Of a stretch of DNA of 64,000 nucleotides, positions 49,771-61,176 are shown one piece after another. The first letter of the stretch is position 1; every line of letters begins with the position of its first letter. The stretch lies in assembly GCA_965116925.1 (NCBI GenBank), contig OZ220744.1, forward strand, positions 1,600,001 to 1,664,000, in the 5' to 3' direction. The position numbers and the translations under genes are program-made. The DNA comes from Candidatus Poribacteria bacterium. GTDB lineage: Bacteria; Poribacteria; WGA-4E; PCPOR2b. The notes beneath the pieces were generated by a model. The model saw nothing but the letters and a program-made list of their open reading frames with translations. It did no database searches and was not told the origin of the DNA.

Positions 49771-51897
49771 TTGGAAAATAGATCTGCATATTTCATATTC
49801 TGTTTATTCGGTATCGTATCTGTCTTTTTTTTCAGCCATCCTTGTGAAGCCGCACCACCGAACCCCTATCTTTTCTACAACTATAATCCTGCTACTAACG
49901 ATTGGACACCGAAGGCACCCGCAAGCGAGACTCAATTCCGCCACGCGTTAGACGGTTGTTGTTTTGTTCGTGAGGAGAGCGTTTTACAAGCAGATGGTAT
50001 CGAGTATGTTCTAGCGATAAAGATTGACTTTTCAGATCAACCCGGTCAGCGACCGGGGGCGGCATTTGATCAGTACCTCTTCGCAGACGAAGGTATTTCG
50101 CTGAAAACCTACTACAGGGAAGTTTCTTACGGACAGATGGACATACAGCCCGGACCGATGGGGGGAGCCCTTCCGAAAGGCAACCGGTGGATTCGTGCAC
50201 AAAATCCGATGAGTTATTATGGTGAGGGACAGATTAACGTCAGGCGTTCCCAAGAACTTGTCCGTGAAGCGTGTGTAGCGGTAGATGATATGGTTGATTT
50301 TTCGGCTTATGACCGTGACAAAGACGGTGTGGTTGACCACGTTTTTATTATCCATTCAGGAGATGATCAAGCCTCGACTGTAGAAATGAACGATATCTGG
50401 TCAATCTTGACCCCGGATATCAATAGAACCTTTGATGGTGTATGGGTAAGCACGGCGGTTCTAGTTGGCGAGGAACCCAGTTTCGATACGCCACACCTTG
50501 GCATCTACTTTCACGAATTCTTCCACGATTTCGGTGCCCCCGACGTATATGGTGGAAATTTTTTAGGTCCTCGCGATCATAAATGGGGACTGATGGGACA
50601 GCTGGGGCCCTATCAAGGCGAAATCGTTGATGGGATTGGGAATGGATTACAACCAAGTCATATCAGTGGTTATCTAAAATGGGACTTTGATGCACGGCCC
50701 GAAAACGGACGTCTCGGTTGGATTCAACCCGTTGAGATTCGGGAGAATGTTGCCAACCTGCCGATACCGAGTTTCGAGTTGCCACCGCAGGACAATAAGC
50801 TCTTCAAAATTGACATTCCCGGAAAAATTAACAAATTTGGAGATAGCACAGAATTTTTCCTGATTGAAAACCGCTATCGAGAGTCGGGAGCACTGTTTGA
50901 TACCCGTCTGCCCGAGTCCGGAATTCTCATCTGGCATATTGATGAAACAGATGTACGGCCTCCCGGAGCGATCGATGCTGCAAGTCAAATTTGGCTTGAG
51001 GATCCGAATGACCCCAAGCATTTTGGTATCCCTCCTGATAATCCGAATAACATAGATATCCGCACTATTACGGATGGTGCTGCATATTCCGCTGATGACA
51101 ATGAAACATCTTTTACCGCTTCGACCCTTCCTAACAGCAGTGCAAATGATGGGACAATCTCGAAAATTTCTATCACAAATATCGGTTTTGAGGGACAGGA
51201 GATGACAATCTCCGTTGCGTTTGGAGATACCTATGAGCCGAATAATGATTTGACCGAGGCTTTTCCCATTGAATTTGACCAAACCTATGAATCCTTTATC
51301 GCCGATGAAAAAGATGAGCGAGATCTCTATCAATTCAATGCGATACCGGGAGAAGCAATCGTAGCTACCTTAACCAGCAACTCGGATACGGTTGACTATC
51401 GATTGTCTATACTTGATAGAAGCGGTCAGTCTATTGCTGCTGCAGAGTGGGTTGAAGTCACAGAACTACAGGTTGTCTTTCAGCCAGAGAGCGCGGATAC
51501 ATATTTTGTTTCAGTCAGATCCCTATCTGGATTCAGCGAAGTGGATTCATACCGTTTGACTGTCAATGCGGTTGAAACGCGATCTGGGCAGCTGAAATTG
51601 ACAAAAGTCCGTGCCTTTCCGAATCCGATGCGTGTGGGGCACCGTGAAATAATCTTCTCCTACACAATCTCTGGCTTCCAACTAGCTGAAGAAGTGGAAA
51701 TAAAAATCTACAATATCGCTGGCGATCTGGTCCACGCGGAGGCCCGCCAGAATGTCATCGGATCTGGTCAATTCCGTTGGAATGGTAGGAATGCGGGTAA
51801 TGAGACACTCGCTACCGGGATTTATATTTTTGCAATCTCCGCGACTCAAGGCGGAAAGATGATTCAGGAAATTGGAAAAATTGGTTTGGTCAGGTAA
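49771..51897 (+). CDS. M6-family (immune inhibitor A-like) metalloprotease with PPC and FlgD-like C-terminal domains
   Basis: DFSAYDRDKDG.VD, HEFFHDFG.PD, EFFLIENR, GILIWHID, DTYEPNN, FPNP...WNGRN...GIY. Confidence 0.85.
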   Translation: MENRSAYFIFCLFGIVSVFFFSHPCEAAPPNPYLFYNYNPATNDWTPKAPASETQFRHALDGCCFVREESVLQADGIEYVLAIKIDFSDQPGQRPGAAFDQYLFADEGISLKTYYREVSYGQMDIQPGPMGGALPKGNRWIRAQNPMSYYGEGQINVRRSQELVREACVAVDDMVDFSAYDRDKDGVVDHVFIIHSGDDQASTVEMNDIWSILTPDINRTFDGVWVSTAVLVGEEPSFDTPHLGIYFHEFFHDFGAPDVYGGNFLGPRDHKWGLMGQLGPYQGEIVDGIGNGLQPSHISGYLKWDFDARPENGRLGWIQPVEIRENVANLPIPSFELPPQDNKLFKIDIPGKINKFGDSTEFFLIENRYRESGALFDTRLPESGILIWHIDETDVRPPGAIDAASQIWLEDPNDPKHFGIPPDNPNNIDIRTITDGAAYSADDNETSFTASTLPNSSANDGTISKISITNIGFEGQEMTISVAFGDTYEPNNDLTEAFPIEFDQTYESFIADEKDERDLYQFNAIPGEAIVATLTSNSDTVDYRLSILDRSGQSIAAAEWVEVTELQVVFQPESADTYFVSVRSLSGFSEVDSYRLTVNAVETRSGQLKLTKVRAFPNPMRVGHREIIFSYTISGFQLAEEVEIKIYNIAGDLVHAEARQNVIGSGQFRWNGRNAGNETLATGIYIFAISATQGGKMIQEIGKIGLVR

Positions 51898-59602: not shown

Positions 59603-59989
59603 TTACGATTCACCTTCTGTTTCTAGCATCATCGCAGCAAACGTCATAACATCTTCTTGGAAAGCCTCCGTAAAATCCTCCGCTCGTTTTTTTTCTGCAA
59701 ACCGGTTGAATACCGTTTCTAATGCTTGGAGGAATTCCTCTGACAATCCTTCATCTTCCGCCTGCTGCTTCATCTGTTGAAGGATTGTCATCTTAGCTGC
59801 TTCTTCTCGTTCTGCTTGCACTTCCTGTATTGATTTGTCAAACGTAACCCGAAGTGTTTCAACGATATGATATGCCATGGAACGGTTATACTTCTGAGAG
59901 TCCCGTTTTGCACCATCATAAATATCAAGAGGTAGCAATAGGCTTATCTGCTTTTTTAGAGAATCTTTAGGTTGGCGATATTCTTTCAT
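59603..59989 (-). CDS. Hypothetical protein, possible N-terminal ribbon-helix-helix (Arc-like) DNA-binding domain
   Basis: KQISLLLPLDIYD...NRSMAYHIV..L pattern followed by acidic helical tail. Confidence 0.4.
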   Translation of the reverse strand: MKEYRQPKDSLKKQISLLLPLDIYDGAKRDSQKYNRSMAYHIVETLRVTFDKSIQEVQAEREEAAKMTILQQMKQQAEDEGLSEEFLQALETVFNRFAEKKRAEDFTEAFQEDVMTFAAMMLETEGES

Positions 59990-60128
59990 TGGAACCCTCG
60001 AAACTATTGGGGTTGAAAGTACGCATTATAAATAATATGTGAGTTGCTGTGAATAGTATATCATTAATACGTGCAGGTGTCCAGTAAAATTATTTTCAGA
60101 GAAATAGCATGTCCTATATTCGGACATA

Positions 60129-61037
60129 CTACTCCCATGAAATACTCTCCATAGTAATATGTAAATCTCGTTCTGTAGGAATAGTATAAACAGAAGTTGT
60201 ATTGATGTTAGAATGCCCTAATATTTTTGCAACCCTATCAATGGATTGCCCGGCATCAATAAGATTCTTTGCACAGGTATGCCTAAATACATGTGGAGAC
60301 AAGTTGTCTATTTTTGCGTTATAGGCATATTTCTGTATGATGTAGCGAACACCACGATCCGTCAGGGGCATCCGTTTCTGTCCGTAAAACAGAAAACGGT
60401 CTCGTTCAGGATTTGAACCAGCTACCGACATCATCTCTCCGTTGCTATTAAGTGACTTCAGATAATCCCTCAGAACACCTATGGCAGTTGAGTTTAATGG
60501 GATATTGCGCCGTTTTGTTCCCTTGCCCTCGCGAACTGTAACCATATTACTATTTGTTGATATTCTAATATCAGAAACTCTTAAATTACAAAGTTCGCTA
60601 ACACGCATGCCGGTATGCAGCAGCATTGTAATAATTGCTAAATCTCTCATATTTCCCGATCTACGTACTGCTCTTAGTAATCCCAGTTGCTCTTTGCGTT
60701 CGAGTGCCCGTGGTGCAAGCGGTTCTTCGGCAACACTCCGTATACCTTCGGCGGGGTTACTCGGAATAAGGTCGTGTTGTTGTGCCCACTGGCAGAAGCT
60801 TGATATACTAATCAAACTACGATTAATCGTTGATGGCTTCTTACCCCGGTCCAGCAGTGCATTCCGATAGTCAATTATCTCCATCGGAGTGACGTTTTCA
60901 AGATTCAGCGGTTCCCCGGTGATCTGTTGGAACCACCGTGAAAATGAGTTGAGATCTGCCATGTACGCCTTGATAGTTTGTTCGGACTTATCCTGATCAT
61001 AAAGATAATCGCGATAATCCTGTAATAAATCGTCCAA
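60129..61037 (-). CDS. Tyrosine recombinase (XerC/D-like)
   Basis: SAM-like N-domain (SEQTIKAY, PSTINR), TGMRVSEL, GKG.KRR, PHVFRHT, LGH, TSVY. AAGGAGG favours a TTG start at 61037; the ORF-track ATG is at 61061. Confidence 0.93.
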   Translation of the reverse strand: MDDLLQDYRDYLYDQDKSEQTIKAYMADLNSFSRWFQQITGEPLNLENVTPMEIIDYRNALLDRGKKPSTINRSLISISSFCQWAQQHDLIPSNPAEGIRSVAEEPLAPRALERKEQLGLLRAVRRSGNMRDLAIITMLLHTGMRVSELCNLRVSDIRISTNSNMVTVREGKGTKRRNIPLNSTAIGVLRDYLKSLNSNGEMMSVAGSNPERDRFLFYGQKRMPLTDRGVRYIIQKYAYNAKIDNLSPHVFRHTCAKNLIDAGQSIDRVAKILGHSNINTTSVYTIPTERDLHITMESISWE

Positions 61038-61050
61038 TTTTCGTACCTCC

Positions 61051-61176
61051 TTATCGGACATTTTTTTTGAGAATTCAGTGTTTATGGGGGTTAGAACGCC
61101 GTAATGTTGGGATTCGTTTCACTTATCGGATATTTTTCGGGGAAATAATGTCCGATAAGATTAGTTATCGGACATT
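61051..61176. other. Putative recombination site: dif-like 12-6-12 core plus direct-repeat arms
   Basis: AATGTCCGATAA-GATTAG-TTATCGGACATT (61147-61176); extra arms TTATCGGATATT (61123-61134) and TTATCGGACATT (61051-61062). Confidence 0.75.

Follow-up and report, generated by a model that had tools for sequence, protein, structure and literature searches.

A TnpI-type recombinase and its repeat-bearing site opposite the replication origin of Candidatus Poribacteria: a candidate system for chromosome dimer resolution

Introduction

It is an open question how bacteria that have neither XerC/D nor FtsK handle chromosome dimers (PMC3025954). Known substitutes are Xer-family enzymes, mostly still driven by FtsK. 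Here we consider a locus in a 64,000-bp stretch of a Candidatus Poribacteria chromosome (contig OZ220744.1, positions 1,600,001 to 1,664,000; hereafter the window), where the gene for a tyrosine recombinase lies beside a perfect inverted repeat that is accompanied by two direct copies of its arm. An initial annotation, made from the sequence, read the locus either as a single-Xer module with its dif site or as a TnpI-like resolution site, and raised the possibility that chromosome dimers are resolved there. Which of these is it, and does it resolve dimers? Our comparisons indicate that gene and site very probably form a TnpI-type module in which the site is cognate to the enzyme. Moreover, we favour, with moderate confidence, the view that a domesticated TnpI-type resolvase resolves chromosome dimers in an organism where XerC/D and FtsK were not found, whilst also shuffling gene modules via bare copies of its core site. 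The source genome (G000) is a single contig of 6,471,377 bp that is 99% complete.

Results and Discussion

Anatomy and conservation of the site

The site (hereafter the home site) comprises an inverted core, IR1-IR2, whose arms extend to 12 bp around a 6-bp spacer and which lies 110 bp upstream of the TTG start of the recombinase, together with two accessory direct repeats, DR1 and DR2 (Table 1). The inverted repeat, the two further arm copies and the overlap of the last of them with the ribosome-binding site had all been described in the initial annotation and are confirmed here. By comparison, a degenerate ATGTCC..TTCGGACAT motif that it placed just after the stop codon (60109-60127) spans only 19 bp, has a matching pair in 0/28 relatives and carries four substitutions in a close strain (run X1), and is not retained as part of the site. 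The array is not a chance arrangement, because the 6.47-Mb genome has 285 perfect inverted repeats of the 11-6-11 form and this one alone has two extra direct copies of its arm within 150 bp.

Table 1. Coordinates of the recombinase, its site and the accompanying gene, numbered from the first base of the window.
Feature	Position	Strand	Remarks
Core site IR1-IR2 (predicted strand-exchange site)	61147..61176	.	Perfect inverted arms 61147-61158 and 61165-61176; 6-bp spacer GATTAG, 61159-61164
DR1 accessory arm	61123..61133	-	One mismatch; 42 bp start-to-start from right arm (IR1)
DR2 arm	61051..61061	-	Exact copy; 114 bp start-to-start from right arm; overlaps the ribosome-binding site
AAGGAGG ribosome-binding site of the recombinase gene	61046..61052	-	Read from the sequence
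TnpI-type tyrosine recombinase	60129..61037	-	302 aa from TTG start; matches to PF00589 and PF02899
128-aa gene, predicted ribbon-helix-helix-like N-terminus, helical C-terminus	59603..59989	-	Downstream of the recombinase in 28/28 orthologous loci
Sigma-70-like promoter match ahead of the 128-aa gene	60055..60083	-	Consensus scan

Core and DR1 are kept together in 27/28 orthologous loci, with an offset of exactly 42 bp at every one of the 27 cores. The combination marks a single locus per genome in 37/58 genomes and never occurs in the reversed control. Amongst 106 sites in the loci that we fetched, only one has DR1 at +42, and it is itself a home site. The distance from DR2 to the start codon is always 22-28 bp (28 loci), and that between DR1 and DR2 is 72-73, 159-160 or 184-185 bp according to lineage. 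DR1 is therefore tied to the core and DR2 to the gene; as far as sequence comparison can tell, this points to a role in recombination for DR1 and an operator role for DR2. By analogy, DR2 over the ribosome-binding site is likely an autoregulatory operator. Two loose alignment ends at 61051 and 61176 (run X15) were considered as recombination joints and rejected, as they arise from a paralogous site at 302 kb that had been aligned in short pieces.

The TTG at 61037 is the most likely start of the recombinase, since most close homologues, which databases list under Candidatus Poribacteria, are 302 aa long and several orthologues carry stops in the eight upstream codons. The protein has the two domains, core-binding and catalytic, of a simple tyrosine recombinase, and all six catalytic residues (R145, K172, H249, R252, H275 and Y284) are kept in 27/27 orthologues. 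Moreover, dN/dS against the window gene is 0.06-0.11 across 13 pairs within the genus, and the gene is under purifying selection.

Affiliation of the recombinase

All Xer and integron models of NCBIfam fall below cut-off for this protein, which scores 176.5 of 220 bits with XerA, 104.6 of 267 bits with XerS, weakly with XerH, and 86.9 bits against a cut-off of 265 bits with the integron integrase model TIGR02249. In an IQ-TREE phylogeny of 31 of the 93 assembled rows (LG+G4), seven module proteins (96/90) fall in a clade with four Tn3-linked or Tn5401-like TnpIs (99/96), whilst eight XerC/D-like proteins from Poribacteria and two from E. coli form a separate clade (99/98). A FastTree phylogeny held 69 rows; the TnpI of Tn4430 is in neither tree and XerL was not compared. 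The BLAST scores run from 172 to 183 bits against five plasmid relatives versus 85-133 bits against 12 XerC/D-like rows from the phylum, and the best plasmid relatives are 34-39% identical to the recombinase.

Six plasmid relatives were inspected in their context: two (B. thuringiensis and L. fallonii) are immediately followed by an annotated Tn3 transposase gene, one by a DUF4158 gene and three by neither. The B. thuringiensis plasmid element is ordered toxin-antitoxin, site, tnpI and Tn3 tnpA, which is the order given for Tn5401 and TnBth4 (PMC7157771). Its site has an 11-6-11 core with arms 1-2 mismatches from ours and two direct repeats, at +52 (DR1) and +87 (DR2). P. larvae has a similar site; that of Legionella has different arms, and its repeats are at +41 and +87. 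On the sequence comparisons, the recombinase is a member of a broad clade of recombinases from mobile elements. TnpI is part of that clade, which is not purely transposon-borne, and it is the site that ties our enzyme to the Tn5401 type. Tree, BLAST scores and the near-identical arms and layout of the Tn5401-type element thus bear out the TnpI-like alternative of the initial annotation, and the XerS-like ancestry that it also offered is not supported by the Xer model scores.

We consider it improbable that the enzyme is instead a diverged chromosomal Xer, that is, a single recombinase of the XerA or XerS kind with its dif, whose likeness to TnpI is convergent. The module recombinase is the top match to the XerC and XerD models in each carrier genome, an approximately unbiased (AU) test of a tree that joins the module and XerC/D clades does not reject it (p = 0.053), and the adjacency of gene and site resembles that of XerS/difSL (PMC5357621). 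However, the protein is below all Xer cut-offs and groups with TnpIs at 99/96 support, and its site has arms almost identical to those of the Tn5401-type site as well as two accessory direct repeats.

Could the module simply be part of a transposon? We rejected membership of a Tn3-family element: a colinear Tn3 transposase is absent, and the gene downstream is the 128-aa gene of Table 1 in 28/28 loci. No match to the Tn3 transposase (PF01526) was found in the source genome and no tRNA in the window, in keeping with the initial annotation, which had seen neither nearby. A repeat scan showed no long inverted pair bracketing the module, though no search aimed at terminal inverted repeats or a target duplication was made.

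Distribution of the module and of XerC/D, FtsK and dif

Orthologues of the recombinase are present in 29/41 genomes, including 19/19 other genomes of the genus, so that the presence in relatives, which the initial annotation had asked about, is not patchy. The module is single-copy in these 19 genomes and across three families, and its tree roughly follows taxonomy. A related recombinase in G148 (42%) has neither site nor partner and was not counted as an orthologue. This distribution largely refutes the idea of a recent mobile relic or a selfish element without a host role, which we regard as very improbable. It would draw on the relatives on plasmids and transposons and on the losses in G020 and G003 described below, but a single copy in 19/19 genomes of the genus, the spread over three families, the roughly taxonomic tree, a dN/dS of about 0.09 and the lack of a transposase all speak against it.

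In 151 genomes of the phylum, XerC/D-like pairs are confined to families f5-f9 (11/11) and the module gene is confined to f1, f3 and f4. No XerC/D pair was found in the source genome, and no protein in the 41 genomes exceeds the cut-off of the XerD model. FtsK gave no match in the source genome either. Across the 41 genomes seven gave a match, none of them canonical, and the two strong ones each lie in a long multi-domain frame; amongst five XerC/D-bearing genomes a canonical FtsK occurs in one, the one that lies outside the class. RecA and FtsZ are present. As for an E. coli-type dif, the best matches in the source genome have five mismatches in 22 arm bases, and a dif pattern search returned 15 matches versus 13 in the control.

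In one genome of family f2 (G051), which is without Xer-like genes, loci L254-L261 hold an AT-rich repeat family of about 220 bp with an ATAA-N6-TTAT motif and 15 exact pattern matches. The motif was considered as a single dif and rejected as part of this repeat family.

Position on the chromosome

We placed oriC of the source genome at its densest cluster of DnaA boxes (12 in 500 bp), between dnaA and dnaN in a dnaA-dnaN-recF-gyrB block whose genes were named from translated starts. The home site lies 81.8 kb from the antipode of oriC, or 175 degrees from oriC. In 20/23 near-complete genomes, which as kin are not independent, the home site is at least 0.40 of the contig from dnaA, the genus medians being 0.487, 0.438, 0.437 and 0.291; G017 and G126 were excluded from this count as partial contigs. 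As controls we took six GTPase genes, matched on the span of the hit and the length of the frame; they reach 0.40 in 0, 1, 1, 4 and 14 of 23 and in 11 of 22 genomes. These controls shift widely between genera, with der going from 0.03 to 0.46. We also looked for a matS-like motif concentrated less than 400 kb from the site, and nothing rose above two control regions.

Other features of this chromosome were seen in passing. A second cluster of seven DnaA-box matches lies at G000:C1 3,504,340 and a second dnaA paralogue at 6,053,740-6,054,810, there are two recA genes (1,731,333 and 2,746,254), and the strand skew is a mosaic with an abrupt change near 2.7-2.9 Mb.

Copies of the core elsewhere on the chromosome

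The initial annotation had proposed counting other copies of the site, having itself missed them: the core occurs 13 more times in the source genome. In all there are 13 strong sites with a 6-bp spacer, including the home site, and one with a 7-bp spacer, with none at other spacings or in the reversed genome, as scored with a matrix built from these same sites. Strong sites number 1-21 in 19/22 genomes and 0 in controls, and the full home array is present even in several genomes with no more than 1-3 of them. Three grades can be told apart: the home site, whose direct repeats stand at +42 and +114; anchor sites, which have a single one at +105 to +111 (19/106); and bare cores. The anchor sites, for example L046:6229-6347, L053:12051-12168 and 17 others, have a core with a 6- or 7-bp spacer and a conserved intervening sequence, and usually stand at the end of an array.

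The cargo between cores includes toxin-antitoxin, nuclease, TIR-TPR, ParA/ParB-like and FG-GAP genes and many genes without a Pfam match. Genes at sites are mostly co-oriented (90/105), and at 39 of these 90 sites the next start is no more than 80 bp away. We asked where alignments break using 56 fetched loci centred on sites, with 106 sites, 361 alignment ends and 500 intergenic shuffles. An end falls at a site on either sequence in 56/361 cases (shuffles: mean 25, maximum 48) and on both sequences in 32/361 (shuffles: mean 0.65, maximum 4). A sponge-metagenome contig (run X1) covers the entire window. In the same run a strain contig departs from an array of the source genome exactly at a core arm (joint L053:6591), and contig joints lie near sites in strains, which in itself does not show a rearrangement.

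The home site itself has changed in some relatives. In G013 the home core is duplicated around a 945-bp one-gene insert, the spacers of the two cores being different, and in G003 a 114-bp deletion has removed core and DR1 whilst DR2 remains, with no core found within a 20-kb stretch of that genome opposite dnaA. G020 (L248:6462-6620) has lost the recombinase gene by deletion: core and DR1 are still there, and after them comes no more of the 128-aa gene than its 3' tail. Moreover, three genomes have FG-GAP genes flanked on either side by cores in inverted orientation whose spacers match; two different spacer sequences occur in these pairs, and only one orientation was seen. These segments, L056:6333-10826 (G003), L057:6561-10692 (G013) and L058:6768-14780 (G011), hold 1-4 FG-GAP/FlgD-Ig genes each and are candidate phase-variable segments; the counterparts of their sites in the source genome, near 3.82 Mb, are decayed. 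In G014 (L059:3328-9600), seven cores lie within 6 kb between small co-oriented genes, some of whose starts resemble genes of arrays L053 and L054 of the source genome.

It is likely that the dispersed cores are recombined by this enzyme. One could argue, on the contrary, that the protein is chiefly a transcription factor, the dispersed palindromes being operators of its regulon and the home array pure autoregulation. The placement of DR2 over the ribosome-binding site in all loci, the 39/90 co-oriented sites close to a start and the freely varying spacers would suit a regulator. We nevertheless hold this to be improbable, given the six catalytic residues in 27/27 orthologues, the alignments that break at sites on both partners, the core duplicated around an insert in G013 and the matched inverted spacers, which co-vary.

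A more serious alternative, though still an unlikely one, is that the enzyme is kept mainly as a shuffler or invertase of gene modules, with the home array as its operator and capture platform (as in an integron attI) and a terminus position that is inherited or tolerated. The G003 gene is under selection in a genome that has, besides DR2, just a matched inverted pair elsewhere, a gene was captured at the home core in G013, breakpoints cluster at sites and the cargo includes toxin-antitoxin, nuclease, TIR-TPR and FG-GAP genes. In addition, family f2 lives without Xer-like genes (1/100 genomes with a match), and there is no skew flip at the site. However, shuffling leaves unexplained why DR1 always stands at +42 and at no site but the home site, and why the module is near-antipodal in three of four genera whilst control genes move. 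Nor does it sit easily with those genomes that have 1-3 strong sites and still keep the full home array.

A proposed mechanism and the points that weigh against it

The TnpI of Tn4430 carries out strand exchange at IR1-IR2 with a stagger of 6 bp, DR1 and DR2 confer selectivity for resolution, and bare cores recombine in a relaxed fashion (PMC2847244). From the TnpIs of Tn4430 and Tn5401 we infer that four copies of the one enzyme would bind two cores and swap strands across the 6-bp spacer. An extra copy on DR1, at +42 or four helical turns (52 in the Tn5401-type site), may then bias the home site towards resolution without a translocase, and enzyme bound at DR2 over the ribosome-binding site would repress its own gene. 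Cores without direct repeats would undergo the relaxed activity of TnpI, giving deletion, inversion and fusion, which fits the insertion, loss and inversion of modules described above. Selective resolution would thus take place opposite the origin, at the home site with its direct repeats, and relaxed shuffling at the bare cores. It is by analogy with these enzymes that we put forward binding and cleavage, the resolution of dimers, autoregulation and whatever the partner may do.

Dimer resolution at the home site is, on balance, the more plausible use of it. That part of the initial annotation which named this a dimer-resolution locus stands in so far as there is no XerC/D pair and no E. coli-type dif, the module is in all 19 other genomes of the genus and it lies opposite oriC. 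The change in GC skew or in polarity of KOPS (FtsK-orienting polar sequences) that the initial annotation looked to did not appear.

Several observations weigh against dimer resolution, or against the TnpI-based scheme as a whole. There is no flip at the site in GC skew, strand-corrected third-position skew or gene-strand bias, yet no two-replichore skew was found anywhere on this chromosome, whose leading-strand gene fraction is 0.503. The 8-mer (KOPS-like) polarity at the site has a z of 7.7 against 7.8-9.2 for random splits. The terminus is therefore placed solely from the distance to oriC. Within the genus the position is partly synteny, as hflX, usually 70-95 kb from the site, is also antipodal in 11/13. 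Of the exceptions, G003 has its module at 0.14 from dnaA without core and DR1, the gene being intact and under selection, G022 has a complete site at 0.29 and G020 has kept the site and lost the gene. Furthermore, FtsK was not found in four XerC/D-bearing relatives (G045, G046, G070 and G112, completeness 89-95%), and family f2, of the same order, has an Xer-like match in only 1/100 genomes; dimer resolution may therefore matter little in this class. With regard to mechanism, DR1 and DR2 stand at differing distances from each other (72, 160, 185), where a Tn4430-type synapse would be fixed, and a topological filter that discriminates over megabases is another weak point of the scheme. With regard to shuffling, the spacers of neighbouring dispersed cores mostly differ, as do those of the duplicate cores in G013, and no flipped state of the inverted core pairs was seen in the three genomes. 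Lastly, the affiliation is touched by the AU result and by the broader relatives from named genomes, where none of the 30 loci examined (of 59) has a Tn3 tnpA, an array or the partner.

More speculatively, the module may be an FtsK-independent machine of three parts, in which a transposon resolvase and its site are joined by the product of the 128-aa gene, a ribbon-helix-helix (RHH) protein taking over the architectural role of DR2, much as ArgR/PepA act at cer. The enzyme would later have become a chromosome-wide capture and inversion system with three grades of site, filtered at the terminus, anchors at array ends and bare between cargo. We offer this as a tentative extension only.

If dimer resolution is its role, a resolvase opposite the origin would be a different solution to the problem, with directionality built into the site, and an enzyme of mobile elements would have taken on a housekeeping job. 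The module is small, one 302-aa protein and a 126-bp site, and so is directly testable in E. coli. If the cores are active, a common sponge symbiont would have a shuffling of defence and FG-GAP repeat genes like that of dif modules, which have been called unique to Acinetobacter (PMC13141974).

The partner gene and the gene neighbourhood

The recombinase is not the lone gene that the initial annotation took it for, being accompanied by the conserved 128-aa gene (Table 1). Amongst 121 genomes of the phylum this gene occurs in 29, limited to families f1, f3 and f4, and its dN/dS within the genus is 0.04-0.18. A TATACT/TATAAT-like box, a putative promoter, stands at the equivalent place ahead of it in most relatives. 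The protein is predicted to be RHH-like from weak matches: an Atlas feature score of 0.87 to the Arc cluster, a weak RHH_5 match in 3/24 members of the family (best 3e-5) and, as top Foldseek row, the Arc repressor at a weak E of 3.1. The monomer model is without a strand. No Foldseek match reached E <= 0.001, the best VIA Z was 7.2, to generic helices, and no sequence match was found in the PDB. Such a protein could be a DNA-binding regulator or an architectural partner of the recombinase.

The neighbours of the module in the window are ruvX, mltG, lpxC and an oxidoreductase gene. The position far from dnaA is kept across four gene neighbourhoods, and in the 28 orthologous loci flanking genes differ between genera with the 128-aa gene as the constant exception. 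Genes of similar size, about 381 aa, were observed between core and ruvX in L117 (G007) and L120 (G015) and after the 128-aa gene in L138 (G011) and L121 (G017). Two further PF00589 genes in the source genome, making three in all, are distant from the module recombinase. They encode two similar tyrosine recombinases (L002:1153-2067 and L003:1159-2067) on a long branch remote from the Xer and TnpI rows, and the number of such genes varies among relatives. Elsewhere in the window, positions 49771-51897 (+) encode a 708-aa protein with a HEFFH metalloprotease-like motif and an Ig-like C-terminal part.

Comparison with known systems

Literature searches, with supplements and subscription papers outside their coverage, returned no description of this module or of a chromosomal TnpI. 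Other simple recombinases may replace Xer in some taxa (PMC8138268, in passages that name no case of TnpI). We considered membership of the XerC/XerD-dif system and rejected it: an antipodal site is present, but two Xer recombinases, an asymmetric dif, FtsK and a converging shift in KOPS and GC skew were not found.

The single-recombinase systems, XerS/difSL, XerH/difH and archaeal XerA/dif (PMC5357621) and XerL/dif of Legionellales (PMC9765430), are alike in having one enzyme, an adjoining single site, a place in the terminus region and no XerC/D. Amongst them XerA functions without FtsK, whereas XerS and XerH require it (PMC5357621). The present module differs in ancestry, being below the XerA and XerS cut-offs, in the length of the enzyme (302 aa versus 354-362 for XerS/H) and in its perfectly symmetric core with accessory repeats; moreover, FtsK was not found in the source genome.

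Closest are TnpI and the internal recombination site (IRS) of Tn5401, TnBth4 and Tn4430 (PMC7157771, PMC2847244), where, as here, the gene of a single tyrosine recombinase is immediately preceded by an inverted core with two direct repeats. The 6-bp central region is likewise shared, the arms are 1-2 mismatches from those of a Tn5401-type element and the proteins fall in a common clade. However, the module here is without a Tn3 transposase or an adjoining toxin-antitoxin pair, and is chromosomal, single-copy, vertically inherited and opposite oriC. Its DR1 is at +42, not +52, its DR2 spacing varies, and it has a linked RHH-like gene and many bare cores elsewhere.

The dispersed cores recall the dif (pdif) modules of Acinetobacter, where 11-6-11 sites with varied spacers surround accessory genes such as toxin-antitoxin pairs and rearrangements are tied to matching spacers (PMC13141974). 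Those modules have asymmetric XerC/XerD arms, alternate between C and D types and reside on Rep_3/OrfX plasmids, whereas here the sites are chromosomal with symmetric arms and a single enzyme. Further differences are the class of anchor or end sites and the mostly co-oriented genes.

In an integron platform, the IntI recombinase adjoins an attI of core plus direct repeats at which genes are captured, and the junctions are attC hairpins. The system described here differs in that the IntI model is below cut-off, the junctions are double-stranded dif-like cores and the arrays lie far from the enzyme gene, but it is alike in having the enzyme beside a site of core and direct repeats with a captured gene, as in G013, and arrays of small co-oriented genes, as in G014.

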